This document shows, in pieces, positions 138-40,859 of a DNA stretch of 63,111 nt (position 1 is its first letter; each line of letters begins with the position of its first letter). The stretch is from Candidatus Wolfebacteria bacterium (lineage in GTDB: Bacteria; Patescibacteriota; Minisyncoccia; UBA6257; UBA9933), in assembly GCA_016214005.1 (NCBI GenBank), contig JACRPK010000007.1, forward strand, positions 1 through 63,111. Direction: 5' to 3'. A model generated the notes under the pieces. The model was not told the origin of the DNA. It searched no databases and saw nothing but the letters and a program-made list of their open reading frames with translations. The position numbers and the translations under genes are program-made.

Positions 138-158
138 ATAATAAGATAAAATAAATCA

Positions 159-749
159 ATGTTTTATTCTATCTCCGGAAAACTTGTGGCGAAAAATCGT
201 AATTTTGCGGCTGTGGAAGTGAGCGGTATTGGCTTTAAAATATCAATTTCCGAAAAAACGCTTCATAAATTGCCCCAAATAGGCCAAGCGGTTTATTTTT
301 TTTGTTATACCAGCATTCGGCAGGATGGAGTGGAAATTTACGGATTTTTAGATGAAAGCGAGTTGGAAATTTTTGAGCTTTTACTTTCTATAAACGGAAT
401 CGGTCCGAAAGCTGGATTGAAAATTCTTGAAATTTCAAAGATTGAAAGCCTTTTGGCGGCTATTAAAAGCGGCAGGAGCGATTTGCTTGAAAAAGCGGCT
501 GGCATTGGAGCAAAAAAGGCTCAAAGGATTGTCTTGGAGCTGAAGGATAAAATTAGCCAGCTCAAAGGCAGTCAATTTAAAAATGGCGAAGAAGTTGAGT
601 TGATGGACGCGGATAGCGATATTGAAAGAGCCTTAAAAAGCATCGGCTATAAGCAAAATGAGATTAAAGACGCGGTTGGCAATATTCCTTCAAAAATAAA
701 AGATCCTAACGAGCGGCTTAAATTCGCTTTAAAATTTTTGTCTAAGTAA
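159..749 (+). CDS. ruvA: Holliday junction DNA helicase subunit RuvA
   Basis: 196 aa. N-terminal OB-fold-like MFYSISGKL...VEVSGIGFKI, and two HhH motifs (INGIGPKAGLKILE, AAGIGAKKAQRIVLELK). Confidence 0.9.
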   Translation: MFYSISGKLVAKNRNFAAVEVSGIGFKISISEKTLHKLPQIGQAVYFFCYTSIRQDGVEIYGFLDESELEIFELLLSINGIGPKAGLKILEISKIESLLAAIKSGRSDLLEKAAGIGAKKAQRIVLELKDKISQLKGSQFKNGEEVELMDADSDIERALKSIGYKQNEIKDAVGNIPSKIKDPNERLKFALKFLSK

Positions 750-780
750 TTTTAGATTATAAATTATTAATATAGACATT

Positions 781-2022: not shown

Positions 2023-2045
2023 AGTAATCGCGAATAATGCGAATT
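2021..2045. repeat. 25-nt motif AGAGTAATCGCGAATAATGCGAATT, identical to 52300..52324; a related copy is at 41206..41230
   Basis: Direct string comparison gives a 25/25 match. Confidence 0.9.
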
Positions 2046-2064
2046 AAGCGCAAATATACGAATT

Positions 2065-3390: not shown

Positions 3391-3463
3391 TAAATTTGAC
3401 ATATAATAATTTATTTGGTATGTTATAAATAGTAAATTGATAATAATATATGGCAGGAGGTGT

Positions 3464-4102
3464 ATGATGGTTGTTAAAATACCGTCAAAATCAACGCTTG
3501 ATATTTATGATATCGGCAATGGTATCAATATATTGGGGGTTGATGCCGCTAAAAAAATTAGCGGGGGAATAATATTTCCAGATTCTTTTAGCCAAAATGT
3601 CCCATTTTCAAAAGATACTTTAAGGGCCTATAAAGGTACGCATATTTTATTCGCTTACCCTGGATTATCAGTGAATGAAATATGTTCTCTGGTTTCTAGT
3701 TATAAAGGGTTAGGCGGAGAGCCGCTATTTGCTTGGCAAAAGTGGTTTCGCAAAGAACAATTTGCTGATAAAAAAGAAAAACCCGGATGGTATTTATTGC
3801 AGAAATTTCATATTCCACTTTCTGTTAATAAATCTTTCATTCAACAGAAGAAAATTGTTTCTGGTGATTCTGATATACCAAGCGCTTGTTTATTATTTTA
3901 TGCGATGGTGGCATATTTTTTTCAAACTTCAAGAAGGTTATTCCAAAATATTTACGCGCAGTCTTCGGATTTTGATGATTCCGGCAAGTTGCGCATTTGT
4001 ATTGGATTTTTTGGAGAAAATGGGCCAGCCATAAGTTTTTTTTGGGATGAGTGGAAAAGTAATTTTATCGGTATAGCGCCGGTTATTAAACAGATTTTTT
4101 AG
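3464..4102 (+). CDS. Hypothetical protein (212 aa from the ATG that follows GGCAGGAGGTGT)
   Basis: Long ORF with an SD-like GGAGG 4 nt upstream of ATGATG at 3464, and a TTGACA promoter-like box at 3397. No family recognised. Confidence 0.5.
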   Translation: MMVVKIPSKSTLDIYDIGNGINILGVDAAKKISGGIIFPDSFSQNVPFSKDTLRAYKGTHILFAYPGLSVNEICSLVSSYKGLGGEPLFAWQKWFRKEQFADKKEKPGWYLLQKFHIPLSVNKSFIQQKKIVSGDSDIPSACLLFYAMVAYFFQTSRRLFQNIYAQSSDFDDSGKLRICIGFFGENGPAISFFWDEWKSNFIGIAPVIKQIF

Positions 4103-4114
4103 AAAGGAGATATT

Positions 4115-4732
4115 ATGGGGAAAATGGCGTTGCCTTCTTTTGGTAGTGGAATCGATCAAAGGGAAGAAAAAAAGGAAAAAAAAATAAAAGAGGAACAAGC
4201 GGAAAAAAGGAAAGAAGAGTTTAGTGAAGAGTTAACAAAAGCAATGGCAGATGCAGAAGCAAAAGAAAAAGAAAAAGAAAAAGAAAAAGAAAAAGAAAAA
4301 GAAAGATTAGCTATAGAGGCGAGCTTAAAAACAGGATTAGACATAAGCGATGCGAGTATACTTTTGCCCAAGCGTCATAATGAAAAAGTTGGAGAGAAAA
4401 ATTTTAAACGAAAGGAAATAAAAGACGATATTTTTAGATCAGAAAGCAATAGAAATATTCTGCCAACGGTTGCATTGTTCTTATCTCCTCTTGTTTTTAT
4501 TATTTTTATTTTTTGGTTTATGAGTAATGATAAATTAAATGGAAATAATAATTTTGTTTCTTCTATCAGCAAAATTGATAAATCAATTAAAGAGGAAAAA
4601 GGAAGAGAGAATGAAGATATTTCTTGTTTAGTTGAAGGAAAATGTGGGGAAGAAAAACCCAAAGAAGAGTTTCATCAAGAATATCCTCTTGGTTATTCTA
4701 CGGAGATAATAGATAATAATTTAAATAATTAA
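4115..4732 (+). CDS. Hypothetical membrane protein with a K/E-rich N-terminal region including a (KE)7 run
   Basis: AAAGGAGA SD before the ATG. One hydrophobic helix (ILPTVALFLSPLVFIIFIFWFM). Low-complexity charged regions. Confidence 0.5.
   Translation: MGKMALPSFGSGIDQREEKKEKKIKEEQAEKRKEEFSEELTKAMADAEAKEKEKEKEKEKEKERLAIEASLKTGLDISDASILLPKRHNEKVGEKNFKRKEIKDDIFRSESNRNILPTVALFLSPLVFIIFIFWFMSNDKLNGNNNFVSSISKIDKSIKEEKGRENEDISCLVEGKCGEEKPKEEFHQEYPLGYSTEIIDNNLNN
4262..4303 (+). repeat. (GAAAAA)7 hexanucleotide repeat encoding KEKEKEKEKEKEKE
   Basis: Read directly at 4261-4305. Confidence 0.9.
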
Positions 4733-4801
4733 AATACGTTTTTAAAAACTGTTTTATTGCGTAAGCGATGGGCAGTTTTTTTATTTGTTTTAAAAAAAAT
4801 A

Positions 4802-4833
4802 GGAGGGTTAGCAATAATAATTGCTAACCCTCC
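4802..4833 (-). terminator. Rho-independent terminator for the minus-strand small-gene pair
   Basis: Perfect 13-bp stem GGAGGGTTAGCAA/TTGCTAACCCTCC with a 6-nt loop, followed on the minus strand by a T-run (plus-strand AAAAAAAAT at 4793-4801). Confidence 0.7.
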
Positions 4834-5039
4834 CTCAGGGAAGGCGACGTCAGCTTCGTTACCGTCCGACGGCGCCTTTTTCTTCCGAAGAATTCTTCTT
4901 GATTATAAAGGAATTCCTTGGAAGAAACAAATGGATTTTTGTCGCAATTGGGGCATTTATCCCCAATCATCATTCCGACAGGGAATTGGTATCCGCAGCC
5001 GGGGTGTGGACAAACAATATTGTTCATTTGCTGGACCAT
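4824..5039 (-). CDS. Small zinc-ribbon protein (CPHPGC...CPNC)
   Basis: 71 aa with two CxxC-type pairs and a basic tail. Co-oriented with, and overlapping, the upstream small ORF; the terminator lies at its end. Confidence 0.45.
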   Translation of the reverse strand: MVQQMNNIVCPHPGCGYQFPVGMMIGDKCPNCDKNPFVSSKEFLYNQEEFFGRKRRRRTVTKLTSPSLREG

Positions 5040-19258: not shown

Positions 19259-20383
19259 TCATAGTATTGTATAACCGCACCCTATTTTGCACTCCTGAGA
19301 CCTTAGAGATATTTTATTCTGTAAAAAGTATGATGATGACCTTTGTTGTTGTAATGATAACATAAATTGTATTGGAGAGAATTTGTTTTGGAAAGCGCCG
19401 TGAACTCTCTCGGTATTGTAGAAAATCAAATAATCAATGAGCTGGCGATTGAATTCATCGGGATTCAAAAGAAGAAAAGAATGGTAATCAATAAACTCTT
19501 CTTGAATGGTGCGATTGAATCTTTCCAGATGAGCGTTCATTTTTGGAGTTCTAGGATAGGTATGATAATGAATAAGATGTTGTTTTCTTAGTTCTTCGTC
19601 AAAATGTTTTTTGAATTCGCTTCCGTTATCAGTCAAAACATATTGAAATTGAAAAGTATAAGGAAAAACTTTTTGACAAAGTTCAAAGAATTCTTTGGCA
19701 GCAAGCGAGGCGTGAGATTTAGTCGCCCAAGCAAATGAAAATCTGGTGTAAATATCTTCAAAAGTAATAACATATCTCCTGACGCCGTTCACAAACCTCT
19801 CTACTGTGTCCAAGGCCACAAGATGACCAGGATAGAGAGGGATAAAATCTTTAGGTTTTCTCAACACTTTTTGACGATTGATTTTCTTGATTTTGCCAAA
19901 ATGAGAAACTTTTTGAGGAAATACGCGAAGTCCTCCGAGATCTTTGATAATTCTTCCGATGGTAGCCGGTTTGGGGCAAAAAAGATTCTTTTCCGCGCAA
20001 AATTTCAAGAGCAAGGGATAGATTTTTTCTTCTCCCAGATTAGGATGAATTTCCTGAGAACGAAGGCGTTTGATTTCTTGAATAACTTCAATTGACCAAA
20101 GACGTTTGCGTTTGACGATCGGCGTTTTGGATTTTTCATTCAAAGCTTCGATCTTTTTTCCGCCCTTTTCCCATTGGCTTTTCCAATAAAATAAGGTTCT
20201 CCTTTTGACCTTGAAAGCGTCTATGACGGCTTCAAAGCCGTGTTTTTCCCAGAAAACCAAGACGCGAGCTTTCTGATGAGCTTTTGCGGTAATCATATAC
20301 CGATATCTTATCGCATCGTTATAGATATTGATAAATCCATTGATACCGGTATATTTGCAATGTATTTTATTGAAAAACTCCAT
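19259..20383 (-). CDS. DDE transposase with an HTH N-terminus and an rve integrase core domain
   Basis: 374 aa. The core reads ...HLVALDTVE..., ...VLTDNGSEF... and ...HYHTYPRTPKMNAHLERFNRTIQEE...YNTERVHGA, i.e. a D, D, E arrangement. Confidence 0.88.
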   Translation of the reverse strand: MEFFNKIHCKYTGINGFINIYNDAIRYRYMITAKAHQKARVLVFWEKHGFEAVIDAFKVKRRTLFYWKSQWEKGGKKIEALNEKSKTPIVKRKRLWSIEVIQEIKRLRSQEIHPNLGEEKIYPLLLKFCAEKNLFCPKPATIGRIIKDLGGLRVFPQKVSHFGKIKKINRQKVLRKPKDFIPLYPGHLVALDTVERFVNGVRRYVITFEDIYTRFSFAWATKSHASLAAKEFFELCQKVFPYTFQFQYVLTDNGSEFKKHFDEELRKQHLIHYHTYPRTPKMNAHLERFNRTIQEEFIDYHSFLLLNPDEFNRQLIDYLIFYNTERVHGAFQNKFSPIQFMLSLQQQRSSSYFLQNKISLRSQECKIGCGYTIL

Positions 20384-29273: not shown

Positions 29274-30041
29274 ATGTCTAAATATTATAATCCCAAAAAA
29301 ACACGAAATCTTTTTGACAAAGACAATAAAGAGCCGTTTGTTATAAGCCGCAGTGGCGTTGATCTTTTTTCAGAATGCCCAAGGTGTTTTTTTATTGATA
29401 AAAAATTGGGAACAAGCCGTCCGCCGGGATACCCTTTTTCACTAAACAACGCGGTTGACGCTCTTTTGAAAAAAGAATTTGACAGCCATCGCGCTGATGG
29501 AATTGCCCATCCCTTGATGGAGGCTTACGGCATTGACGCCGTGCCTTATCCGCACGAAGAGCTTGAAAAATGGCGAGAATCGCGAACAGCCGGAATAAGA
29601 TTTTTTCATGAGCCGACGAATTTGATTTTACGCGGCGGCATTGATGACATTTGGATAAATTCAAAAGGCGAACTTCATATAGTTGATTACAAAGCAACTT
29701 CAAAGAATGAAGAAGTTAATTTAGACGCCGATTGGCAAATCGGTTATAAACGCCAGGTTGAAGTTTACCAATGGCTGTTTCGCCAAAATGGATTTAAAGT
29801 TTCAGACATTGCTTATTTTGTTTATTGTAACGGTCTTACGGACAGGGAAGCTTTTGATGCCAAACTCGAATTTGATGTGAAGGTTATTCCTTATAATGGA
29901 GATGATTCTTGGGTGGAAGGAATTTTAAAAGATATTAAAAAATGCCTTAAAGACGATAAATTGCCGGAAAGCGGAAGGGATTGCGATTATTGCGCTTATT
30001 TTAAAGCGAGAGGCTGTTTAGAAAAAGAAAAATCCGCTTAA
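29274..30041 (+). CDS. PD-(D/E)XK nuclease with a Cas4/AddB-type four-cysteine cluster
   Basis: N-terminal CPRC, GGIDDIW, VDYKATSK (D..D/ExK), QVEVYQW (QxxxY), and the C-terminal CDYCAYFKARGC (CxxCx5C). Confidence 0.7.
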   Translation: MSKYYNPKKTRNLFDKDNKEPFVISRSGVDLFSECPRCFFIDKKLGTSRPPGYPFSLNNAVDALLKKEFDSHRADGIAHPLMEAYGIDAVPYPHEELEKWRESRTAGIRFFHEPTNLILRGGIDDIWINSKGELHIVDYKATSKNEEVNLDADWQIGYKRQVEVYQWLFRQNGFKVSDIAYFVYCNGLTDREAFDAKLEFDVKVIPYNGDDSWVEGILKDIKKCLKDDKLPESGRDCDYCAYFKARGCLEKEKSA

Positions 30042-33347: not shown

Positions 33348-33670
33348 TGGAGGCGTGCCCCCACACTAATTGAGTTTTTAAAATTATGTTCTTTGTGTAT
33401 ATTTTGCAAAGTTTAAAAGATAAAAATTTATATATTGGGTCAACTAATGATTTGAGACGAAGGATAGAAGAACATAATTCCGGAAAATCTAAATCTACAA
33501 AGTTGAGAGTGCCTTTCAAATTGATTTATTACGAAGTGTATGTGTCAGAAAATGATGCCAGAATAAGAGAGCATAATCTTAAACTTAATGCTCGCGCTCT
33601 TGGCCAATTAAAACGAAGACTTGCTAATGCTTTATTAAATAATTAAACTCAATTAGTGTGGAGGCGTGCC
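33348..33670 (+). mobile_element. GIY-YIG mini-cassette: a 12-nt direct repeat of the tRNA-Ser 5' end, 13-nt terminal inverted repeats, and a single 86-aa ORF
   Basis: TGGAGGCGTGCC occurs at 33348-33359 and at 33659-33670. CACACTAATTGAG (33363-33375) is the inverse of CTCAATTAGTGTG (33648-33660). Confidence 0.7.
33386..33646 (+). CDS. GIY-YIG nuclease domain protein (UPF0213/YhbQ-like)
   Basis: FVYILQSLKDKNLYIGSTNDLRRRIEEHN...: the GIY..YIG, R and E core motifs. Confidence 0.85.
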   Translation: MFFVYILQSLKDKNLYIGSTNDLRRRIEEHNSGKSKSTKLRVPFKLIYYEVYVSENDARIREHNLKLNARALGQLKRRLANALLNN

Positions 33671-33749
33671 TGAGCGGCTTAAAGGAGCATCCTGCTAAGA
33701 TGTTGTCCGGGAAACCGGACCGAAGGTTCAAATCCTTCCGCCTCCGCCA
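33660..33749 (+). tRNA. tRNA-Ser (anticodon GCU), class II, CCA encoded
   Basis: Acceptor GGAGGCG/CGCCTCC, anticodon loop CTGCTAA, a long variable arm, T arm GAAGG-TTCAAAT-CCTTC, 3' GCCA. Confidence 0.85.
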
Positions 33750-34053: not shown

Positions 34054-35835
34054 ATGAAAAATTATTTTTTAAAAATAATTTTCGCTAGTGGCATCAGTAT
34101 TATATTAATATTTTCTTTAACTCGTTTGGTGTGGGGGTGGAATTCTCCGAATAATAATCCGCCCAGTTCAACTAATCAGGCGATGTATATAAATAGCTCC
34201 GGCAATGTCGGCATCGGGACGACGAATCCAACGGGGGGGAGATTGCATGTTGACTCTGGGTCAAGCGCGGGAGTTTACAGTATTGGTACTGGTTCAAATT
34301 TTGTTGCGGATACTAACACAACTGGCGTCTTTGGTCATTTACGGGGCCAGCGGCAGGGTGTCCTAAAGTATTACTTAGGATTGGATGCTAGTGATAATTT
34401 CGCAATCTTGAGTACTGCCGCGGCACCGCTGGTGTCTGTAACAAACTCCGGCAATGTCGGCATCGGGACGACGAGTCCGAATAGCAAATTAGAGGTTTCA
34501 GCGGATAATCCTGGAATTAGATTGTCTGATACAACGGCTTTAGCAACCCCTTCAATGATAGAAACTATAGGTGATGTTGCTAACACTGCCTTGACTATAA
34601 GTAATAACGCAACCGCAGCTTCAGGAACTTGGAATAGAATTGATACCTCATATGGGGCCGCAAATATCCATATGATGAACGATGGAAGATTGTGGTATTG
34701 GACTGCAGCAGCAGGGGCAAATCCAATAACTTGGGTTGATAGGTTATATATGGATACATCCGGCAACGTCGGCATCGGGACGACGAGTCCGACAGGCAAG
34801 CTCACGATCAAGAGCGGCACTAACGCCGACCTGGAATTCGGCTCATCTGGAACGACTGCCACTTATCTGCAGGCCTACAATAGAACATCAAACGTGTACT
34901 CGGACATGAATTTTTATACGACGCCAGCAATTACAATGGCCATTAAAGCTGATAGCGGTAACGTCGGCATCGGGACGACGAGTCCGACCGCAGGGAAACT
35001 GCAGGTTGCTGGTTCAGTCACTGCCACAGGTGCCCAGGCGGCTGACCTCGCGAGTGCCACTACGCTGGATTATTCGAACGGTGGGCGCTTCATTGTAAAC
35101 GGACCAGATACCTCCACAAATGGAACCCTGAACTTTTATCTTACTAGAAGTAACGGTTCCAATACTCTTAACCCTTTGACACTCAAAAATGATGGCAACG
35201 TCGGCATCGGGACGACGAGTCCGGGATCAAAATTAACTGTTGGCAACAATTCGGGGAGTAGTGATACGACAATGTTTGTCTCTAATAGCAATTATCGCGC
35301 TATTTATGGTTATGGCACTACAGTTGGTGTTGAGGGGGCAGGAATAGTTGGGGGTGGATATTCAGGAGGTACCATTTCAGGGAGCGCTGGAATTGCGGGT
35401 TATGGTAATAATGGAGTTTACGGAGCAGGAGCTACTTATGGAGTTTTTGGTTATAGCGGAAATTCCGGCGGTTGGGGAATTTATTGTGGCGGAACAGGTA
35501 CTTTATATTGCGGAGGCGGCGCTGCTTGGTCTAATGTTTCAGATATTCGCCTTAAAAAAGATATTTTGACAATTAACAGTGCTCTTGAGAAAGTATTAAA
35601 ACTTCGCGGTGTTAATTATATTTGGAAAGATGATATCACAGAAACAAATCATGTCGGTTTTATAGCGCAAGAAGTTTTACCGATTGTTCCGGAAGTCGTT
35701 GGCAAAAATAAGGATGGCTATTATGTATTGTCTTATGCTGAATTTGCTCCTCTTTTTACCGAAGCCATCAAAGAACAACAACTCCAAATTGAAGAATTGA
35801 AAGCGGAAGTGAAGGAATTGAAGGCGGGGAGATAA
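34054..35835 (+). CDS. Tail-fibre-like protein with five SGNVGIGTT(S/N)P repeats and a C-terminal peptidase S74 (intramolecular chaperone/autoproteolysis) domain
   Basis: N-terminal TM/signal helix and a G/S/T/N-rich beta-type body. The C-terminus reads SDIRLKKDI...LRGVNYIWKDD...VGFIAQEV..IVPEVV...YVLSYAEFAPLFTEAIKEQQLQIEELK, as in endosialidase/tail-fibre chaperone domains. Confidence 0.75.
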   Translation: MKNYFLKIIFASGISIILIFSLTRLVWGWNSPNNNPPSSTNQAMYINSSGNVGIGTTNPTGGRLHVDSGSSAGVYSIGTGSNFVADTNTTGVFGHLRGQRQGVLKYYLGLDASDNFAILSTAAAPLVSVTNSGNVGIGTTSPNSKLEVSADNPGIRLSDTTALATPSMIETIGDVANTALTISNNATAASGTWNRIDTSYGAANIHMMNDGRLWYWTAAAGANPITWVDRLYMDTSGNVGIGTTSPTGKLTIKSGTNADLEFGSSGTTATYLQAYNRTSNVYSDMNFYTTPAITMAIKADSGNVGIGTTSPTAGKLQVAGSVTATGAQAADLASATTLDYSNGGRFIVNGPDTSTNGTLNFYLTRSNGSNTLNPLTLKNDGNVGIGTTSPGSKLTVGNNSGSSDTTMFVSNSNYRAIYGYGTTVGVEGAGIVGGGYSGGTISGSAGIAGYGNNGVYGAGATYGVFGYSGNSGGWGIYCGGTGTLYCGGGAAWSNVSDIRLKKDILTINSALEKVLKLRGVNYIWKDDITETNHVGFIAQEVLPIVPEVVGKNKDGYYVLSYAEFAPLFTEAIKEQQLQIEELKAEVKELKAGR

Positions 35836-35867
35836 ATTTGACTTTGGGATTTCGGGGATGGTAGAAT
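35776..35867 (+). repeat. R0: the authentic 3' end of the tail-fibre-like gene plus a downstream promoter; prototype of the R repeat family
   Basis: CAACAACTCCAAATTGAAGAATTGAAAGCGG...GGGGAGATAAATTTGACTTTGGGATTTCGGGGATGGTAGAAT. TTGACT at 35838-35843, 18 nt spacer, TGgTAGAAT ending at 35867. Confidence 0.85.
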
Positions 35868-35873
35868 ATAAAA

Positions 35874-36080
35874 ATGACAACAATTACTATCCCAATAAAA
35901 ATTGAAAAAGAATTAAAATTAGCTTCTCAAAATCTGGGATTTTCCAAAGAAGAACTTTTAACGAATGCTATTCTATATTATCTTCAAATTTTAGAAAAAA
36001 AAATAGAATTAAAAAATGAATTGAATCAATGGGAAAAAATCAGCAATATTGATTTAATTAAATTTGAGCAAGAAATTTAG
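35874..36080 (+). CDS. RHH (CopG-like) antitoxin, partner of the MazF-like toxin
   Basis: 68 aa. TITIPIKIEKELKLASQNLGFSKEELLTNAILYYL fits a ribbon-helix-helix pattern. Lies 5 nt upstream of the toxin gene. Confidence 0.6.
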   Translation: MTTITIPIKIEKELKLASQNLGFSKEELLTNAILYYLQILEKKIELKNELNQWEKISNIDLIKFEQEI

Positions 36081-36085
36081 AAATA

Positions 36086-36412
36086 ATGAGAAAGGGAGAT
36101 ATTTGTTTGATTAATTTAAGTTTTGGCGCCGGGCATGAGCAATTCGGAGAAAGGCCGGCAGTTTTAATTTCTGATACTAAAACTAAAATAGTTATTGTAA
36201 TTCCGCTCACCGCTAATTTCGAATCTTTAAGATTTCCTTATACTTTGGCAATTTTGCCTGATGCTAAAAATAATCTTAAACAAAAATCAGTGGCTTTAGT
36301 TTTTCACCTTAGGGCAATAGATAAAAAAAGAATTTTAAAAATAATTGGGAGAATAGATTTAAAATCACAAAGAAAATTAGATGAAATTTTGAAACAAATG
36401 TTAGAATTATAA
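36086..36412 (+). CDS. MazF/PemK family toxin (mRNA interferase)
   Basis: MRKGDICLINLSFGAGHEQFGERPAVLISD...VIVIPLT matches the GD-I..v.f.p..G.E..g.RPavV core. Confidence 0.8.
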   Translation: MRKGDICLINLSFGAGHEQFGERPAVLISDTKTKIVIVIPLTANFESLRFPYTLAILPDAKNNLKQKSVALVFHLRAIDKKRILKIIGRIDLKSQRKLDEILKQMLEL

Positions 36413-36420
36413 TTAGACGA

Positions 36421-36467
36421 CAACAATGGCTCCAAATTAAAGAATTGAAGGCGGGGAGATAAATTTT
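36421..36467 (+). repeat. R1: short degenerate copy of the tail-fibre gene 3' end
   Basis: CAACAATGGCTCCAAATTAAAGAATTGAAGGCGGGGAGATAAATTTT. Confidence 0.8.
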
Positions 36468-36501
36468 ATTTGTCCCATGGGGAAGCCTGCATAAGCGTTA
36501 T

Positions 36502-36530
36502 TTGACAAGCGATACTATTGTATATACAAT
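36502..36530 (+). promoter_or_regulatory. Promoter of the BrnT/BrnA cassette with an overlapping 14-bp palindromic operator candidate
   Basis: TTGACA, 17 nt spacer, TACAAT. The palindrome ATTGTATATACAAT (36517-36530) overlaps the -10 box. Confidence 0.55.
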
Positions 36531-36544
36531 GTATATAAATAAAG

Positions 36545-36805
36545 ATGAAGTATTTTAATTGGAATCCCGAAAAGAATAAAAAACTGATTAAAGAAAGAGG
36601 AATTTCTTTTGAAATATGTTTAATAAAAATTGAAAATAAAGATATATTAGATATTTTAAATAATATAAATTATTCAAATCAAAAAATTTTTGTTTTGGAG
36701 ATAGAAGAATATGTTTATTTAGTGCCTTTCGTTGAAAATGAAAATGAAATTTTTTTGAAAACTATAATTCCAAGCAGAAAATCCACTAAAAAATATTTAA
36801 AATAA
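36545..36805 (+). CDS. BrnT-like toxin (DUF497 family)
   Basis: FNWNPEKNKKLIKERGISFE... resembles the FxWDxxKNxxNxxKHGxSFEEA signature. Followed by a BrnA-like gene. Confidence 0.65.
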   Translation: MKYFNWNPEKNKKLIKERGISFEICLIKIENKDILDILNNINYSNQKIFVLEIEEYVYLVPFVENENEIFLKTIIPSRKSTKKYLK

Positions 36806-36816
36806 AAAATATAAAT

Positions 36817-37083
36817 ATGAAAAAAATTATAAAACTTACAAAAGAAGAAAGGGATATTTTAAAATCAGCAGAAGACGGAGAATTTATTTCTACTGTGTCT
36901 AAAAAAAAAGATGTTACACATTATTCAAAAATAGCGAAAGCTACATTGGCAAAAAATAAAACAATTTCTATAAGAATTTCGGAAGTTGATTTGATAAAAT
37001 TGAAGGCAAAAGCGGCACAAGAAGGTATGCCATATCAAACATTAATATCTTCTTCTCTTCATAGACTTACAGTTAATAGTTAA
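36817..37083 (+). CDS. BrnA-like antitoxin (CopG/RHH C-terminal domain)
   Basis: KTISIRISEVDLIKLKAKAAQEGMPYQTLISSSLHRL is the typical BrnA C-terminal pattern. Confidence 0.7.
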   Translation: MKKIIKLTKEERDILKSAEDGEFISTVSKKKDVTHYSKIAKATLAKNKTISIRISEVDLIKLKAKAAQEGMPYQTLISSSLHRLTVNS

Positions 37084-37123
37084 AAGCTAGAAACGAGAAT
37101 ATTATAAGAGGATTTTTAATTGC

Positions 37124-37199
37124 AAACGGAAGTGAAGAAATTGAAAGCGGGGAGATAGAAGATAAAAGTTTGACTTTGAGATTTTGGGCGTGATAAGAT
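37124..37199 (+). repeat. R2: copy of the gene-end remnant (AAACGGAAGTGAAGAAATTGAAAGCGGGGAGATAG) plus a TTGACTTTGAGATTTTGG promoter module
   Basis: TTGACT at 37170-37175, 18 nt spacer, TAAGAT at 37194-37199. Confidence 0.8.
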
Positions 37200-37206
37200 A
37201 AAATAT

Positions 37207-37488
37207 ATGATTAAATTTAATTTACAATTACCAATATCTATATTTAAGGAAGGTAAATATTTTATCGCTTATACTCCTGTACTTGATTTATCAACTTCTG
37301 GCAAAAATTATGATCAAGTTAAAAAGAGATTTAATGAGGTGGTAATTATTTTTTTTGAAGAATTGATAAAAAAGGGGACACTTAGTGATGTTTTAGGAAA
37401 TTTAGGTTGGCAAAAGATTAAAAATCAATGGGTGCCGCCCAATCTTATCTCTCAAGAATCGGAAAAGATACAACTTTCAGTGGCGTGA
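37207..37488 (+). CDS. HicB-like (UPF0150) antitoxin
   Basis: ISIFKEGKYFIAYTPVLDLSTSGKNYDQVKKRFNEVV resembles the HicB N-terminal fold signature. Precedes a HicA-like gene. Confidence 0.55.
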   Translation: MIKFNLQLPISIFKEGKYFIAYTPVLDLSTSGKNYDQVKKRFNEVVIIFFEELIKKGTLSDVLGNLGWQKIKNQWVPPNLISQESEKIQLSVA

Positions 37489-37495
37489 TTTTATT

Positions 37496-37726
37496 ATGTT
37501 TAGTTTAAGGCCTATTTCGTGGAAAAAGTTTGAAAAATTTGTTTTATATGTGGGTTGTTCTTATGAAAGAAAAAGTGGCGATCATAGAGTTTATGGGCGT
37601 AGCGATTTAAAAAGGCCGGTAGTTTTTCCAGAAGATAAAGAAATTCCAATTTTTATTATTCGTAATAATTTGCGAACATTAGGAATAAGTTATAGTGAAT
37701 ATATAAGTATTTTAGAAAAACTTTAA
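37496..37726 (+). CDS. HicA/YcfA-like toxin
   Basis: 76 aa: ISWKKFEKFVLYVGCSYERKSGDHRVY...RPVVFPEDKEIPIFIIRNNLRTLGIS. Confidence 0.6.
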   Translation: MFSLRPISWKKFEKFVLYVGCSYERKSGDHRVYGRSDLKRPVVFPEDKEIPIFIIRNNLRTLGISYSEYISILEKL

Positions 37727-37747
37727 TTAAATAGTAATATATCAAAT

Positions 37748-37818
37748 CCCAACAACTCCAAATTGAAGAATTGAAAGCGGGGAGATAAATTTGACTTTGG
37801 GATTTTGGAGGTTAAAAT
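37748..37818 (+). repeat. R3: gene-end remnant plus promoter module
   Basis: CCCAACAACTCCAAATTGAAGAATTGAAAGCGGGGAGATAAATTTGACTTTGGGATTTTGG. TTGACT at 37791-37796, with TAAAAT near 37813. Confidence 0.85.
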
Positions 37819-37825
37819 AAATAAT

Positions 37826-38071
37826 ATGAATACGATTACTATTCCGAAAAATTTAATAAAAAATGATGATTTGGTGATTATACCGCGAAAAGAATATGAA
37901 AATATGAAAGCGAGGATGATGCCAATTTTTTATTTAAAAGGAAAAAATGCGAAACTTCTTGATAAGCGGGTCAGCGAAGGGATAGAGGAATATCGCGCGG
38001 GGAAAATGGAAGATTTAAATTCATTTCTTAAGAAAGAATATCCCGATTTTCATAAGAAATATGGAAATTAA
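37826..38071 (+). CDS. Putative antitoxin of the RelE/YafQ-like toxin
   Basis: 81 aa from the ATG at 37826. Overlaps the toxin start by 11 nt. The family was not recognised beyond its position. Confidence 0.5.
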   Translation: MNTITIPKNLIKNDDLVIIPRKEYENMKARMMPIFYLKGKNAKLLDKRVSEGIEEYRAGKMEDLNSFLKKEYPDFHKKYGN

Positions 38072-38318
38072 TCTTTCCTCGCGGTTTAAAAAATCTTTTC
38101 GTAAAATTCATCCTCGCATTCAAAATAAAGCAATTGATAAAATATCAATTTTCAAGATTAATCCCTTTAATTTAAATCTTAATACTCATAAATTGCATGG
38201 GGAGAAAAAAGAAGAATGGGCTTTTTCGGTAGATTATTTTTATAGAATTAGTTTTATTTTTATTGAAGATAAAAAAGTTATTTTTACAGATATCGGTACT
38301 CACGATATTTATAAATAA
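38061..38318 (+). CDS. RelE/ParE-superfamily toxin (YafQ-like)
   Basis: FKKSFRKI...HKLHGEKKEEWAFSVDYFYRISFIFIEDKKVIFTDIGTHDIY matches the RelE/YafQ pattern (H.L.G....w...v..dyRi.y......i.l...G.H). Confidence 0.7.
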   Translation: MEINLSSRFKKSFRKIHPRIQNKAIDKISIFKINPFNLNLNTHKLHGEKKEEWAFSVDYFYRISFIFIEDKKVIFTDIGTHDIYK

Positions 38319-38319
38319 T

Positions 38320-38397
38320 CAAACCCCATCAACTCCAAATTGAAGAATTGAAGGCGAAAAGGTAAATTTGACTTTGGGATTTTGGGGATGGTAGAAT
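38320..38397 (+). repeat. R4: gene-end remnant plus promoter module, nearly identical to the R0 promoter
   Basis: CAAACCCCATCAACTCCAAATTGAAGAATTGAAGGCGAAAAGGTAAATTTGACTTTGGGATTTTGGGGATGGTAGAAT. Confidence 0.85.
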
Positions 38398-38403
38398 AAT
38401 ATT

Positions 38404-38658
38404 GTGGCTAAAAAATTAAGACAATTTAAGATTATTATTGAACAAGATGAAGACGGATATTTCGTTGCTTCAGTTCCTGCTTTGCCTGGATGTTTCACTC
38501 AAGCTAAAACGCTTTTTGAACTTAAAAAAAGAATTCACGAAGCAATATCTCTTTGTTTGGAAGTTGCGAAAAATGATCGTCAATATCGCGCTAGCATTAA
38601 TGAATTTTCTTATGAGCCTTCTTTTGTTGGGCTTGAAACAATAGCTGTTGCTGCATGA
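38404..38658 (+). CDS. hicB: HicB family antitoxin
   Basis: FKIIIEQDEDGYFVASVPALPGCFTQAKTLFELKKRIHEAI is the classical UPF0150/HicB signature. GTG start. Confidence 0.8.
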   Translation: MAKKLRQFKIIIEQDEDGYFVASVPALPGCFTQAKTLFELKKRIHEAISLCLEVAKNDRQYRASINEFSYEPSFVGLETIAVAA

Positions 38659-38882
38659 GCCAAAAAATTCCAACTTTAAAAGCTAAAGATATTATTAGAA
38701 TTTTGAAAATTCTTGGATTTTTTGAAGCCAGAAGTAAGGGCTCGCATATTTTTTTTAAACATTTAGATGGTCGAATTACTCTTGTGCCAAAACATGGCGG
38801 TGAAGACATTGGGCGCGGTCTTTTGCAACAAATTCTTAGAGAAATTAAAATTACGCCCGATGAATTCAAAAATCTTCTTTAA
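38655..38882 (+). CDS. hicA: HicA family toxin
   Basis: LKAKDIIRILKILGFFEARSKGSHIFFKH.DGRITLVPKHGGEDIGRGLLQQILREIKI is the classical HicA pattern. Overlaps hicB by 4 nt. Confidence 0.82.
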   Translation: MSQKIPTLKAKDIIRILKILGFFEARSKGSHIFFKHLDGRITLVPKHGGEDIGRGLLQQILREIKITPDEFKNLL

Positions 38883-38891
38883 ATTAAAATT

Positions 38892-38991
38892 CTCAAACCC
38901 CATCAACTCCAAATCAAAGAATTAAAAACGGAAGTGAAGGAATTGAAAGCGGGAAAATAAATTTGACAAGCAATTTAAATAATTATACTAT
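38892..38991 (+). repeat. R5: full-length gene-end remnant (reads ...QLQIKELKTEVKELKAGK-stop) fused to the typA promoter
   Basis: CTCAAACCCCATCAACTCCAAATCAAAGAATTAAAAACGGAAGTGAAGGAATTGAAAGCGGGAAAATAAATTTGACA. TTGACA at 38963-38968, 17 nt spacer, TACTAT at 38986-38991. Confidence 0.8.
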
Positions 38992-39053
38992 AAAAAATCT
39001 GCCTAATGGCAAATAGGTCTGCTGTAAGGGCGGATTTTTATTTTAAAATATTT

Positions 39054-40859
39054 ATGGCAAATATACGCAATGTTGCGATTATTGCTCACGTTGACCACGG
39101 CAAAACAACCTTGGTTGACGCGCTGCTCAAACAATCGCGGACAAAATTGAATAAAGAGACTAACGAGGCGATTTGTATTATGGACAGCAACGAATTGGAG
39201 CGTGAAAGAGGAATCACTATTTTTTCCAAGAACGCTTCGGTTGAATGGAATGGAACTAAAATCAATATTATTGATACGCCCGGACACGCTGATTTCGGTG
39301 GCGAAGTTGAGCGCGTTTTGAATATGGCAGATGGCTGTTTGCTTTTGGTTGACGCCAAAGAAGGTCCGATGCCGCAGACAAGATTTGTTTTGAAGAAAGC
39401 ATTGGAAATGGGGCATAGAGTTATTGTGATTATCAATAAAATTGACAAACCCGGAGCAAGGGCTGATTTCGCCATTAACAAAACTTTTGATTTATTTGTT
39501 GAGCTTGGCGCCAATGATCAGGCTTTAGATTTTCCGGTTGTCTACGCTTCGGGCCGCGAAGGCAAAGCTGGACTTGAAAATGATTTAAGCAAAATGGTTG
39601 ATATTTCGCCGATTTTTGAAGCGATTTTAAAACACATCCCGGCTCCGGTAAATGACATCAACAAGCCCCTTCAATTACTTATTACCAATGTTGTGCCCGA
39701 TGATTTTAAGGGAAGAATTGCGATTGGCAGGGTTCATAATGGAATAATTCGCGCAGGGCAAGAAATCAGCCACATTAACCGCGAGGGGAAAATTGAAAAA
39801 TGCAGGCTTGTTTCGCTGATGACTTTTAGCGGTTTAAACAGAATTGAAGCGAAAGAAGTTGTTGCCGGAGATATTGCGGCGATTGCGGGAATTGCTGACG
39901 CAACAGTGGGCGAAACAATAGCTGATTCTTTAAATCCGCAAGCTCTGCCGCTTTTAAGCATTGAAGAGCCGACTGTGAAAATGACTTTTATGGTCAATGA
40001 TTCTCCCTTTGCCGGAAGAGAGGGAGAATTTACGACTTCTCGCCAGATAAAAGAAAGGCTTCATAAAGAACTTGAAACAGATGTCGCGCTTAAAATTGAA
40101 GACACATCTGACGGCAAGTGGATAGTGTCAGGTCGCGGCGAGCTTCACCTGTCAATTTTAATTGAAAGATTACGCCGCGAGGGATTTGAATTTCAGATTT
40201 CTCGGCCGCAGGTGATTCTTAAAGAAGTTGACGGGAAAAAGATGGCGCCTTATGAAAGGGTTTTTATTGAAGTTCCGGAAGAATACTATGGATCAATTAT
40301 TCAAAAATTTGGCATCCGTAAGGGTGAACTTAAAGAAATGTCTAACAATGACGGAATTGTATATTTGGAATTTATCGTGCCGACCCAGGGGCTTTTCGGT
40401 TATCGCAGCGAATTTTTAACGGATACTAAGGGGTTGGGAATTATGAACGCGAATTTTTATGAATATAGGGCTGATCCTGGAATAGTTAATGAAAGAGAGC
40501 AGGGGTCGCTTGTCACATGCGAATCAGGGCAAACAAATCTTTATGGGTTGGTGAACATTCAAGACAGGGGAGTTTTATTTTTCGGGCCAGCTGCTGAAGT
40601 TTATGAAGGTCAGGTTGTGGGATCAAATTCCAGAAGCGGTGATATAAGAGTTAATGTTTGTAAAACAAAACAGCTTTCAAATATGCGCTCTAAAAATGAC
40701 GGCGCTGCCGAGCATTTTAATACTCCCAAAACAATGGGGCTTGAAGATTCTTTGGAATATATTTCAGACGATGAGCTTGTTGAAGTGACTCCTAAAAGCG
40801 TAAGGATAAGAAAAATGTGGCTTGATGAGAATATGGCTAAACGTATGTCAAAAAATTAG
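39054..40859 (+). CDS. typA: Translational GTPase TypA/BipA
   Basis: IRNVAIIAHVDHGKTTLVD, DTPGHADFGGEV, NKIDK, and the C-terminal BipA-specific region. The start was set at the ATG at 39054. Confidence 0.93.
   Translation: MANIRNVAIIAHVDHGKTTLVDALLKQSRTKLNKETNEAICIMDSNELERERGITIFSKNASVEWNGTKINIIDTPGHADFGGEVERVLNMADGCLLLVDAKEGPMPQTRFVLKKALEMGHRVIVIINKIDKPGARADFAINKTFDLFVELGANDQALDFPVVYASGREGKAGLENDLSKMVDISPIFEAILKHIPAPVNDINKPLQLLITNVVPDDFKGRIAIGRVHNGIIRAGQEISHINREGKIEKCRLVSLMTFSGLNRIEAKEVVAGDIAAIAGIADATVGETIADSLNPQALPLLSIEEPTVKMTFMVNDSPFAGREGEFTTSRQIKERLHKELETDVALKIEDTSDGKWIVSGRGELHLSILIERLRREGFEFQISRPQVILKEVDGKKMAPYERVFIEVPEEYYGSIIQKFGIRKGELKEMSNNDGIVYLEFIVPTQGLFGYRSEFLTDTKGLGIMNANFYEYRADPGIVNEREQGSLVTCESGQTNLYGLVNIQDRGVLFFGPAAEVYEGQVVGSNSRSGDIRVNVCKTKQLSNMRSKNDGAAEHFNTPKTMGLEDSLEYISDDELVEVTPKSVRIRKMWLDENMAKRMSKN

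Follow-up and report, generated by a model that had tools for sequence, protein, structure and literature searches.

The interval between a Peptidase_S74 gene and typA in the window (the whole 63,111-nt stretch of Candidatus Wolfebacteria DNA that was analysed) contains six direct copies (R0–R5) of the 3′ end of the S74 gene, arranged around five two-gene type II toxin–antitoxin (TA) modules. Judged from its sequence, the interval is an array of five different TA cassettes with copies of the gene end plus a promoter half between them. We consider it somewhat probable that the array is a stack of independently acquired cassettes, which would have piled up by a target-duplicating route, by recombination between R copies (R × R), or by both. 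The architecture recurs in related bacteria next to other genes, which suggests a little-known route by which selfish TA pairs insert and accumulate, here with no visible mobile-element machinery and in an ultra-small Patescibacteria bacterium.

Architecture of the array

The anchor gene encodes a 593-aa surface or tail-fibre-like protein (Table 1). Residues 496–549 match Pfam PF13884 (Peptidase_S74, E = 1.7e-16), all relatives in the homologue search have ≤32% identity, and the C-terminal motif EAIKEQQxQIEELK is common to the whole family. The open reading frame ends in R0, in agreement with the first-pass annotation, which took R0 for the real 3′ end of this gene. All six copies that it described are found in direct orientation, each about 45–90 nt long. 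With up to three mismatches, the core GAATTGAARGCGGGGAGATAA gives 5 matches against 0.01 expected, and no further match occurs elsewhere in the 63 kb. R1–R5 had been read as coding-end remnants that include the stop codon, and every one of them does stay in frame through to its stop. One 21-nt heptad is missing from R1, R3 and R4, the second heptad alone is left in R2, and R1 has one codon extra relative to R0. Identity to R0 is 98% for R1, 90% for R2, 94% for R3, 87% for R4 and 85% for R5, an overall but non-monotonic fall toward typA; 6 of the 11 differences in R5 are GC-to-AT. R3, R4 and R5 have the 5′ boundary TCAAAYCCCA in common, where the gene itself reads TCAAAGAACA. The boundaries of R1 and R2 differ from this one, while AAATTTGAC is common to all junctions of the array. 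The GC content is 24–33% in the array and ~35% in the flanks, which we count as a possible sign of foreign origin.

Table 1. Features of the S74–typA interval, in window coordinates
Feature	Position	Strand	Description and support
Anchor gene	34054–35835	+	ORF; GNVGIGTTSP repeats; C-terminal Peptidase_S74 chaperone domain
R0	35768–35855	+	Genuine S74 gene end (..IKEQQLQIEELKAEVKELKAGR-stop), followed by ATTTGAC plus the P-A promoter's first half
Promoter P-A, copy 1	35838–35867	+	TTGACT-18-TGgTAGAAT; start codon 6 nt past the -10 hexamer
Cassette 1	35874–36412	+	68-aa antitoxin (35874–36080), MazF/PemK toxin (36086–36412; Pfam PemK_toxin 5.5e-19)
R1	36415–36466	+	Gene-end remnant (..QQWLQIKELKAGR-stop); 46/47 aligned bases as R0; without P-A
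Second promoter type	36502–36530	+	TTGACA-17-TACAAT, ahead of BrnT; first 14 nt resemble typA promoter
Cassette 2	36545–37083	+	Toxin first: BrnT (36545–36805), BrnA/CopG antitoxin (36817–37083)
R2	37118–37187	+	Second-heptad remnant (..TEVKKLKAGR-TAG), 9-nt insertion, P-A half; 43/48 as R0
Cassette 3	37207–37726	+	93-aa putative HicB-like antitoxin (37207–37488), HicA toxin (37496–37726; Pfam 4.3e-8)
R3	37742–37808	+	Remnant (IKSQQLQIEELKAGR-stop) and P-A half; 51/54 as R0; 31-nt exact match with R0
Cassette 4 (A4/T4)	37826–38318	+	81-aa antitoxin (37826–38071), 85-aa RelE/YafQ-like toxin (38061–38318)
R4	38319–38385	+	Remnant (IKPHQLQIEELKAKR-stop) and P-A half; 47/54 as R0; begins right at end of toxin stop codon
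Cassette 5	38404–38882	+	HicB antitoxin (38404–38658), HicA toxin (38655–38882); Pfam 2.1e-9, 2.4e-18
R5	38893–38967	+	Full-length remnant (..KPHQLQIKELKTEVKELKAGK-stop), most diverged copy; 64/75 as R0
typA promoter	38963–38991	+	TTGACA-17-TACTAT
typA/bipA	39054–40859	+	Translational GTPase, distal array boundary; 601-aa query, 100% coverage, 84–86% identity to Wolfebacteria/Patescibacteria TypA

The first-pass annotation had raised the concern that the repeats arise in assembly. Single cassettes of different strains may be joined end to end via a shared repeat; the DNA is of metagenomic origin, and repeats classically give rise to chimeras. In SRR12113407, two Logan contigs, assembled independently, match window positions 36366–37779 and 37838–39107 at 100% identity. 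They span the junctions MazF-R1-BrnTA-R2-HicBA3-R3 and A4T4-R4-HicBA5-R5-typA, crossing R1, R2, R4 and R5 together with both adjacent cassettes. Exact matches between two R units reach 31 nt at most, less than the length of a sequencing read, and one of the contigs stops exactly at the 31-nt repeat. Truncated remnants that abut the stop codon of the preceding toxin are also not expected from bubble concatenation. Because the junctions are reproduced in independent contigs and no exact R–R repeat exceeds 31 nt, we take the array as real, and an artefact is hardly credible.

TA cassettes and promoters

Each repeat interval holds exactly one two-gene module of about 520–651 nt (~0.52–0.65 kb), as had been stated. 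The labels MazF, BrnT + BrnA, HicA, RelE/YafQ-like and HicB + HicA proposed earlier stand, whereas "RHH" for antitoxin 1 and "HicB-like" for antitoxin 3 are weakly supported. Antitoxin 1 shows a weak RelB-like match below the cut-off (E = 8.7e-4). The 93-aa partner in cassette 3 has no Pfam match and matches weakly a putative uncharacterized protein, TTHA1756 (PDB chain 2yzt, E = 0.048). In cassette 2, BrnT scores 5.1e-7 (below GA) and CopG_antitoxin 3.3e-8. Domain support for cassette 4 from the single sequence is weak, and its family profile weakly matches RelE-superfamily structures (E about 0.01). This cassette has 39 homologues with 53–81% identity; the pair is maintained throughout the retrieved loci, the antitoxin lying beside the toxin wherever the contig includes the upstream region.

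The start codon of cassette 1 follows the -10 hexamer of P-A so closely (6 nt) that its mRNA is probably leaderless. P-A had been reported as a promoter module repeated in R2, R3 and R4. Its signature TTGACTTTGGGATTTTGG has 4 matches (R0, R2, R3 and R4) against 0.3 expected, and what these repeats carry is the first half of the promoter. At the distal end, the last repeat is indeed fused to the typA promoter, the 3′ end ATTTGAC of R5 forming its -35 element. P-A-like promoters accompany the A4/T4 family in other genomes, with 22/30, 21/30 and 20/30 identical positions (background 99th percentile, 18), and P-A has 83% identity over 42 nt to a 1058-nt cyclic Logan contig (L145). The promoter half in R therefore resembles a promoter that travels with this TA family elsewhere and is probably cassette-borne, not S74-borne.

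Recurrence at other genes

In other Patescibacteria, duplicated ends of various neighbouring genes flank cassettes of the A4/T4 family. The 3′ end of rplB with its terminator hairpin is present in four copies (76–83% identity over 99–219 nt), which separate A4/T4, HicBA, HicBA and MazE/RelE-like cassettes (L108). At another locus (L121) the order is gatB, A4/T4, an 89-nt gatB 3′ remnant that carries a stop codon of its own (79% identity), and the next gene. A recO 5′ fragment forms a perfect 36-nt direct repeat on both sides of the cassette in L100, a repeat of ~85 nt derives from the recO leader in L128, and a recO 5′ pseudo-fragment lies at one side of the cassette in the L144 and L090 group. 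LamG-like gene-end remnants lie between cassettes in L117, and the cyclic contig L145 contains a cassette and a piece that reads like the C-terminal coding end of a gene. Flanking direct repeats were found at 7 of 40 A4/T4 loci versus 11 of 426 random placements (Fisher p = 3e-4, for loci that are not phylogenetically independent). Some flanking repeats (L115, L122 and L117) are REP-like palindromes beside RAYT-like genes, a different mechanism. Searches for close relatives of the genome or of the R unit found none: JGI metagenomes gave 0 matches, 80 S74 loci likewise gave none, and the matches in IMG/VR were at chance level only.

Since the same architecture occurs with rplB, gatB, recO and LamG-like anchors, the link of the array to the tail-fibre-like gene looks incidental. 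This also bears on a possible origin from tandem S74 paralogues, each with a TA module, that deletion reduced to their 3′ ends. Repeat-rich surface proteins of this kind often have tandem paralogues (L022, L041 and L055). Such decay would, however, need five independent deletions sparing the last 35–75 nt alone, three of which would have stopped at one and the same nucleotide; copies of the promoter half are present too, and rplB, gatB and recO, which show the same architecture, are single-copy housekeeping genes. We regard this origin as very improbable.

Recombination sites and recombinases

The R units were searched for features of known recombination sites. They show no attC-like fold (DNA folding z-scores -1.2 to +1.3), as the first-pass annotation had assumed, and no dif-like core ATAA-N6-TTAT, Rfam match or convincing inverted core-type arms. 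The statement that the window lacks a recombinase gene holds for tyrosine and serine integrases in a Pfam survey of the full 63 kb, but not for an rve-type DDE transposase gene at 19259–20383(-), 15 kb from the array, whose involvement is unlikely. The cassettes may nevertheless be miniature non-autonomous integrative elements of the same kind as CIMEs or integron cassettes, with an att site that would overlap the S74 3′ end. The R units would be attL/attI/attR, and a tyrosine or serine recombinase would act in trans from elsewhere in the genome or from a helper element. Direct repeats that take in a target gene's 3′ end are the hallmark of 3′-end-targeting integrases, and the common 5′ boundary of R3, R4 and R5, the presence of AAATTTGAC in all junctions and the likewise common boundary of the rplB remnants all fit. 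The 1058-nt cycle is compatible with an excised circle. On the other hand, no integrase adjoins the comparable arrays of L108, L121 and L100 either, the boundaries of R1 and R2 differ, and R has no recognizable arms, hairpin or dif-like site. With a crossover site 3′ of the stop codon, an element need not carry the coding end. The anchor is different each time (S74, rplB, gatB, the recO 5′ end, LamG-like), so a single integrase specificity cannot cover all cases. We consider this accretion unlikely.

The preserved reading frames suggest another route, one-sided homologous recombination (homology-facilitated illegitimate recombination, HFIR). An incoming S74 3′ end with its cassette would anchor in S74 and form an illegitimate joint immediately 5′ of the resident gene end, shifting this end and the older cassettes downstream. 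The remnants would then be former functional ends of different S74 alleles. All five keep frame and stop with indels in multiples of three (the 21-nt heptad deletion, one extra codon), they resemble allelic variants (KSQQ, KPHQ), and the cases span a broad range of identity to the live end (recO 67%, gatB 79%, S74 array 85–98%). A proximal-young, distal-old gradient fits as well, and HFIR is documented in naturally competent bacteria (PMC3240628). Independent illegitimate joints should differ, yet R3/R4/R5 and the rplB remnants have common boundaries. The recO repeats of L100 are identical at 36/36 positions, indicating a true local duplication, and the mostly GC-to-AT changes in R5 look more like neutral decay than like alleles diverging under selection. 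Donor strains already having different cassettes at exactly the same junction would also be needed. Displacement of this kind appears quite improbable.

Proposed route of accumulation

Under the favoured reading, that of stacked acquisitions, each event would duplicate a local target, the last 35–75 nt of the S74 gene through the stop codon and the following ATTTGAC. Once an A4/T4-type cassette is present, the target would also take in the -35 and spacer half of its promoter. S74 would stay intact, and the target duplication at each acquisition would account for the 45–90 nt direct repeats that bracket every cassette. Each antitoxin promoter would combine the -35 half from the repeat with the cassette's own -10, 6–7 nt ahead of the start codon. 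Entry may proceed by insertion with long target duplication and/or by RecA-type recombination between R copies, either as Campbell-type integration of an R + cassette circle or as a non-allelic crossover with taken-up DNA from strains having another cassette at the same site. A cassette-encoded or adjacent recombinase would play no part. R may act as a recombination handle, as the first-pass annotation put it, or may simply be the footprint that each insertion leaves as a long target duplication. New cassettes would enter mainly at the S74-proximal end; the gradient of identity to R0 and the mostly GC-to-AT changes in R5 would follow if the distal copies are the older ones and are decaying. 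R × R deletions would be possible but counter-selected, because loss of a cassette would release its toxin, and this would explain why TA pairs alone survive in the array. We infer the recombination mechanism, the growth polarity, the addiction-based retention and the promoter activity. Some features fit this proposal less well. Independent target duplications explain the shared 5′ boundary of R3, R4 and R5 no better than would a defined site or a common arm carried by the cassettes. A simple order of proximal addition is at odds with R1 and the BrnTA cassette, whose promoter is of a different type related to that of typA, and 45–90 nt offers little homology for RecA to recombine efficiently.

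Comparison with known systems

The first-pass annotation had likened the array to orphan modules at polymorphic-toxin loci. This analogy fails on content: what the remnants encode is limited to the last 13–22 conserved codons, without any alternative functional domain. In chromosomal integrons, too high an excision of TA cassettes kills the cell (PMC13108822). Tandem CIME and microCIME arrays are known at rpsI, fda and rpmG (PMC7563491). For restriction-modification systems, insertion that duplicates a long target (over 30 bp, of variable length) is documented in the absence of mobility genes, frequently with overlap of a gene 3′ end and for the most part in species that are naturally competent (PMC2853133). 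By analogy, these systems and CIME accretion appear to be the closest precedents for the TA array.

Repeat units and their anchor gene

The interval between the S74 tail-fibre-like gene and typA is punctuated by direct copies of the S74 gene 3' end, numbered from R0 (the live end) to R5 (nearest typA). Five further copies of the segment made up of the final 22 codons of the gene, the stop codon and the adjoining ATTTGAC lie before typA, and all six units have the same orientation. The units are 45–90 nt long and absent from the remainder of the window. Their 21-nt core occurs five times against 0.01 expected by chance, with none elsewhere in the 63 kb. The reading frame to the stop codon is preserved in every remnant, which encodes the final 13–22 conserved residues and then the stop. 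One 21-nt heptad is missing from each of R1, R3 and R4; R1 also contains an extra codon, and R2 retains only the second heptad. R3, R4 and R5 share the start position TCAAAYCCCA, where the S74 gene reads TCAAAGAACA, and begin 0–14 nt past the stop codon of the preceding toxin; the 5' boundaries of R1 and R2 are different. The copies are mosaics of one another. Their identity to the live S74 end is 98% for R1, 90% for R2, 94% for R3, 87% for R4 and 85% for R5, an overall but non-monotonic drop toward typA. The changes in R5, the most distal copy, are mostly GC-to-AT. Because this is consistent with neutral AT-biased decay, the in-frame remnants were not taken as proof of selection as functional alleles. 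R3 contains an apparent 9-bp inverted repeat (AAATCCCAA / TTGGGATTT); R4, R5 and R0 do not conserve it, and it was taken as chance.

The best relative of the S74 protein is only 32% identical, and its C-terminal motif EAIKEQQxQIEELK is family-wide. The gene has a GC content of 41–45%, above that of the surrounding genome, and carries internal 33-nt repeats (CGGCAACGTCGGCATCGGGACGACGAGTCCGAC, 91–100% identical) that correspond to the GNVGIGTTSP motif. A GIY-YIG nuclease gene and a tRNA-Ser gene lie just upstream of a coiled-coil gene and the S74 gene. GIY-YIG homologues are also found just downstream of S74-like genes in two comparison loci from other genomes or metagenomes (L025 and L080) and near a TA module in a third (L126); nothing was found that ties this nuclease to the repeats.

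The six R units and five TA cassettes described in the first-pass annotation are confirmed, and the array is not an assembly artefact. Two independently assembled Logan contigs (SRR12113407), retrieved by exact-protein look-up, are 100% identical to the window and cover R1, R2, R4 and R5 with both adjoining cassettes, as well as the R5-typA junction. The longest exact repeat between R units is 31 nt, and one Logan contig ends exactly at the 31-nt exact repeat common to R0 and R3. MazF of the first cassette has no match in the exact-match index and the S74 protein occurs solely on the window's own contig, so the junction of R0 with cassette 1 has no independent contig.

Coordinates and properties of the features in the window and at comparison loci
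Feature	Position	Strand	Description
rve DDE transposase	19259-20383	-	374-aa ORF; rve/rve_3 integrase-core domains, E=2.5e-8 and 5.3e-7
PD-(D/E)XK nuclease gene	29274-30041		counterpart of the gene upstream of typA in L083-L085
GIY-YIG nuclease gene	33386-33646		stand-alone, 86 aa
tRNA-Ser(GCT)	33660-33749
S74 anchor ORF	34054-35835		593 aa; GNVGIGTTSP-type repeats; C-terminal Peptidase_S74 intramolecular-chaperone domain, Pfam E=1.7e-16
S74 internal 33-nt repeats	34761-35225
-10-to-start intervals, P-A-driven cassettes	35867-35874, 37199-37207, 37818-37826, 38397-38404
Logan contigs	36366-37779, 37838-39107		SRR12113407
Module 1			antitoxin 68 aa, weak RelB-like; toxin MazF (5.5e-19)
Module 2			toxin first; BrnT (5e-7, below Pfam cut-off); antitoxin BrnA/CopG (3e-8)
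Module 3			antitoxin 93 aa, weak match to PDB 2yzt (TTHA1756); toxin HicA (4e-8)
Module 4			antitoxin 81 aa; toxin 85 aa, RelE/YafQ-like
Module 5			antitoxin HicB (2e-9); toxin HicA (2.4e-18)
typA promoter	38963-38991
typA leader hairpin	39015-39037		terminator-like, followed by T-run
typA	39054-40859		ATG at 39054
L108			rplB 3' end (Ribosomal_L2_C, 1.8e-30) + terminator hairpin; 4 copies, 76-83% identity, 99-219 nt
L121			gatB 3' end; order gatB, cassette, 89-nt remnant with own stop codon (79% identity), next gene
L100			recO 5' fragment; cassette within perfect 36-nt direct repeat; third, diverged copy is the true recO start
L128			recO leader; direct repeat of ~85 nt
L090 group, L144			recO 5' pseudo-fragment; single copy, either side of cassette
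L117	JGI Ga0209211_10013003, 300-4900		LamG-like gene end; remnants between A4/T4 pair, MazF-like gene and other small genes
L145	Logan SRR28011866, 1-1088		cassette + fragment reading as C-terminal coding end
L115	JGI Ga0080004_1128102, 1-2900		three tandem TA modules
L050	CAZCND010000010.1, 2282-3825		Saccharibacteria MAG; 371-aa AAA-ATPase-like gene (2570-3685) inside direct repeat

TA cassettes and promoters

Exactly one two-gene module lies in each interval between successive R units. The five cassettes are 520–651 nt long and consist solely of antitoxin, toxin and promoter, with no mobility genes; their GC content is 24–33% against ~35% in the flanks. MazF, both HicA proteins, HicB and CopG/BrnA score above the Pfam cut-off, while BrnT reaches 30.4 bits against a cut-off of 34.5 bits. 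The module-4 toxin (T4) matches weakly when its sequence is searched alone. Its family is tight, with 39 proteins at 53–81% identity, and the family profile gives weak matches to RelE-superfamily structures (RelE/YafQ/HigB); the module-4 antitoxin (A4) partners the toxin in every locus whose contig includes the upstream region. All five modules have the predicted gene organization of type II TA systems, with small adjacent or overlapping antitoxin and toxin genes.

Four of the copies (R0, R2, R3 and R4) are followed by the 18-nt promoter segment TTGACTTTGGGATTTTGG, against 0.3 expected. Its -35 half lies in the R unit, and the predicted promoter is called P-A here. A second promoter type, TTGACAAGCRAT..., follows R1 and R5; after R5 it is the typA promoter. 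Since the -35 half of P-A is conserved while the -10 regions differ, the boundary between R unit and cassette appears to be located inside the promoter spacer. The antitoxin start codon lies 6–7 nt past the -10 hexamer in all four P-A-driven cassettes, with no Shine-Dalgarno sequence, suggesting leaderless mRNAs. The same spacing is found in homologous modules of three comparison loci (L094, L097 and L090). Promoters resembling P-A precede module-4-type antitoxins elsewhere (22/30 positions in L110, 21/30 in L096 and 20/30 in L113, where the 99th percentile of the background is 18/30), and the promoter region of L145 is 83% identical to the R2 copy over 42 nt. Because of this resemblance, P-A is most simply read as native to an A4/T4-type cassette. 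Such a cassette would have stood directly behind the S74 gene, and P-A would then have joined the duplicated target. Downstream of the array, the terminator-like hairpin in the typA 5' leader lies between promoter and ATG and could act as an attenuator.

Search for a recombinase and recombination sites

When every ORF of 120 aa or longer in the 63 kb was compared with Pfam, housekeeping genes, including RuvA and RecO, were found, and no tyrosine or serine recombinase. The first-pass statement that the window carries no recombinase holds for these integrases and needs correction for an rve DDE transposase, the window's only mobility-type gene, 15 kb from the array. No integrase was found at the analogous loci L108, L121 and L100. 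The R units do not behave as structured sites. Folded as DNA on both strands, R0, R3, R4 and R5 give z-scores of -1.16 to +1.29 relative to shuffles, about 0 on either strand; they fold no better than shuffled sequence, which rules out an attC-type hairpin and bears out the first-pass annotation on this point. A dif/Xer site is likewise ruled out, as no R unit contains a dif-like XerC/D core. The ATAA-N6-TTAT core occurs once in the region, outside every R unit and within the coding sequence of BrnT; at this same position lies the closest fit to the dif consensus, with five mismatches. Rfam gives no match to R and finds only tRNA-Ser. R is not palindromic, and no REP/RAYT gene was found in the window.

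By TypA identity (84–86%) the window belongs to Patescibacteria, close to Candidatus Wolfebacteria. The searches yielded no close relative. In seven typA loci from three relatives (80–85% identity) the upstream region is not syntenic and contains no array. A PD-(D/E)XK nuclease gene is directly upstream of typA in L083-L085 (typA 84% identical); its counterpart in the window is 9 kb from typA, separated from it by infB, tRNAs, the S74 gene and the TA array. The region upstream of typA is a rearrangement hot spot. A degenerate R pattern has 0 matches in JGI metagenome contigs and four single chance matches in IMG/VR, none with an S74-like gene end. Among 80 S74-family loci of GTDB genomes there are no R units and no analogous gene-end repeats; these loci contain tandem paralogues and one AAA-ATPase gene within a 142-nt repeat (L050). 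Phage records have no similarity to the region, and plasmid records give one 104-nt match in a Calothrix plasmid, which is not meaningful. A prophage or plasmid origin is unsupported by these collections.

The same architecture at other genes

Module-4-type pairs in relatives are mostly single modules between housekeeping genes, in many and varied contexts. A substantial minority is flanked by duplicated ends of the adjoining gene. At L108, in a different organism, a second array repeats the design of the one in the window, here behind a ribosomal-protein gene. Its rplB-derived copies separate an ORF plus A4/T4 cassette, two different HicBA cassettes and a MazE/RelE-like pair. Flanking direct repeats are found at 7/40 modules against 11/426 random placements in the same loci (Fisher p=3e-4; 350-nt flanks, E<=1e-5), where the loci are not independent and some repeats are REP-like palindromes. 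Because brackets made of neighbour-gene ends recur at L108, L121, L100 and other loci, we regard the architecture, as read from these sequences, as one that TA cassettes in Patescibacteria show repeatedly. The earlier description of a cassette array stands, with five TA pairs between R copies, while the part of recombination handle that it gave the repeats is a putative one. The array type is not specific to the tail-fibre-like gene, since the anchors elsewhere are rplB, gatB, recO or a LamG-like gene, and the tail-fibre-like gene appears to be one among several possible anchors. In L145 the first 30 nt of the contig equal the last 30 nt, giving a 1058-nt cycle with an A4/T4-type cassette, hairpins and a coding fragment that resembles a C-terminal end. 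The cassette may exist here as a circle, or the k=31 assembler may have collapsed a perfect direct repeat.

Other arrangements were observed at these loci. The A4/T4 family lies repeatedly immediately upstream of recO (L090-L093, L099, L100, L109, L128, L133-L135 and L144), and a 23-codon recO pseudo-5' fragment, closed by a stop codon beside the true start, is often present as well. L115 and L122 have three tandem TA modules with the 23-nt palindrome CTGTCGACGTCAAACGTCGACAG between them (8 copies in L115) and an adjoining 274-aa gene with an HUH-like NHFHLLL motif, just upstream of rpsL-rpsG-fusA. They are probably a REP/RAYT system interleaved with TA cassettes. In L117 the LamG-like remnants (..VRVYNRALTPxEIKRLYNMGR-stop), each after the palindrome TAGTAGGGTCAGACCCTACTA, punctuate the A4/T4 pair, the MazF-like gene, a RAYT-like gene (NHFHAIF motif) and a 109-aa gene. 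The REP/RAYT assignment of L115, L122 and L117 was made solely by inspection of the sequence motif NHFH... The repeat of L050 (86% identity) starts precisely where an S74-family gene has its stop codon, and this locus may be a non-TA instance of the same insertion footprint.

Proposed route of cassette acquisition

Direct repeats that copy local sequence bracket every cassette, with no linked recombinase and no structured att site. We think it somewhat probable that insertion with long target duplication brought in the cassettes, that the host recombined homologous R copies, or that both took place. The recombination could take the form of integration of a circle carrying R and a cassette, or of a non-allelic crossover with DNA taken up from strains bearing another cassette. 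New cassettes would be added mainly at the S74-proximal end. Deletions between R units would occur and be penalised, as loss of a cassette frees its toxin, and this may be why every surviving cassette is a TA pair. The typA-like promoter on R1 and BrnTA and the differing 5' boundaries of R1 and R2 do not fit any simple model. A less probable rival is movement by a trans-acting site-specific recombinase, likened to that of CIMEs (PMC7563491). It would account for the boundary common to R3-R5 and for that shared among the L108 remnants, but it is hard to reconcile with the variety of anchor genes and the lack of an integrase. As another, also less probable rival, resident gene ends could have been displaced by one-sided homologous plus illegitimate recombination.

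Insertion and homologous recombination could also be part of a wider process, and we advance this tentatively, as an extension that is less likely than not but has a real chance of being right: Patescibacteria may have a general cassette-capture route that is integron-like and independent of a recombinase. 'Naked' TA modules (promoter, antitoxin and toxin, ~0.5–0.6 kb) would insert beside essentially any conserved gene end and duplicate a long stretch of it. These copies would serve as portable homology handles for excision as circles and spread by DNA uptake, and host homologous recombination would stack the cassettes into arrays. TA addiction would then be the ratchet that keeps arrays in otherwise streamlined genomes.

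How chromosomal TA modules move outside recognisable mobile elements is an old and poorly answered question. The array reads as a record of five successive acquisitions at one site with the junctions preserved, and the footprint of a duplicated neighbour end recurs at rplB, gatB, recO and other genes in related uncultivated bacteria. The strongly reduced genomes of Patescibacteria tolerate, or cannot shed, stacks of selfish modules, one of them directly downstream of a ribosomal-protein gene. We expect R-R circles in reads, cassette numbers that vary between strains and target-derived repeats at empty sites.

Comparison with known systems

Orphan CT/immunity arrays at Rhs/CdiA loci repeat pieces of the conserved region of the main gene downstream, with a different small module after each piece. 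The present array is similar in that gene-end fragments precede different modules, and a displacement model is plausible. Here, however, each remnant ends in a stop and brings no alternative functional domain. The modules are autonomous TA pairs under promoters of their own, and the anchor is not a toxin and is elsewhere rplB, gatB or recO. With no alternative C-terminal toxin domains and standard TA pairs downstream, the likeness to displaced polymorphic-toxin modules drawn in the first-pass annotation was abandoned.

The pdif (XerC/D) modules of Acinetobacter plasmids are small, discrete and frequently TA pairs, share with the array the lack of a module-encoded recombinase, and are shuffled between replicons (PMC6449649, PMC13141974). 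Their boundaries are 28-bp XerC-6-XerD sites in alternating orientation, whereas the R units are chromosomal direct repeats without a dif-like core. With neither such a boundary site nor alternating orientation, a pdif/IMEX identity was rejected. Sedentary chromosomal integrons such as the Vibrio superintegron also hold an ordered array of small cassettes, in which promoter-bearing TA cassettes police cassette loss (PMC13108822). TA pairs with their own promoters are likewise expected to penalise loss here and so to stabilise the array. Unlike in integrons, the repeats copy a neighbouring gene end and every cassette is a TA pair; the window has no IntI, attI or attC hairpins, and an integron cassette array was rejected on both counts.

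CIME accretion at housekeeping-gene 3' ends in streptococci was reportedly described by Bellanger et al. in 2011. CIMEs and microCIMEs are tandem elements without recombination genes, whose direct att repeats hold the 3' end of a protein-coding target gene that stays intact (PMC7563491). The array shows the same pattern, with direct repeats containing the target 3' end at every boundary and an intact target gene. CIMEs derive from ICEs or IMEs and need a cognate integrase, usually present in the same composite; no integrase is found in this window or at L108, L121 and L100, and the anchor gene varies between genomes. CIMEs are 1.2–13 kb and microCIMEs 130–220 bp without genes, while the units here are 0.5–0.65 kb and all TA pairs. 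The array works like an integron or a CIME stack yet fails the defining tests of integrons and pdif modules. In full-text literature searches, no account emerged of TA arrays with duplicated neighbour-gene ends between the modules, nor of such arrays in Patescibacteria.

Insertion with long target duplication of RM gene units is said to have been described by Nobusato et al. in 2000. Such RM units carry no mobility genes, and their insertion leaves target duplications that are long (>30 bp), vary in length and often reach into a gene 3' end; naturally competent species account for most of the examples (Furuta, Abe & Kobayashi 2010, PMC2853133). The array is alike in being built of small, predicted post-segregational-killing units of low GC content, bracketed by variable direct repeats that copy the local target, often overlap the neighbour's 3' end and could later mediate amplification or release. 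It differs in its cargo of type II TA pairs, in the serial stacking of five different cassettes at one site, in the duplicated segment that also supplies half a promoter, and in its patescibacterial host. Each insert is below 20 kb and holds a complete addiction-type unit without mobility genes, and the flanking repeats exceed 30 bp and copy local, otherwise unique sequence, as they also do at rplB, gatB and recO in L108, L121, L100 and L128. Judged by these features, the array would qualify as 'insertion with long target duplication'. The recurrence of the footprint links TA mobility to this process, so far described for RM systems, and suggests a common invasion mode for addiction modules.
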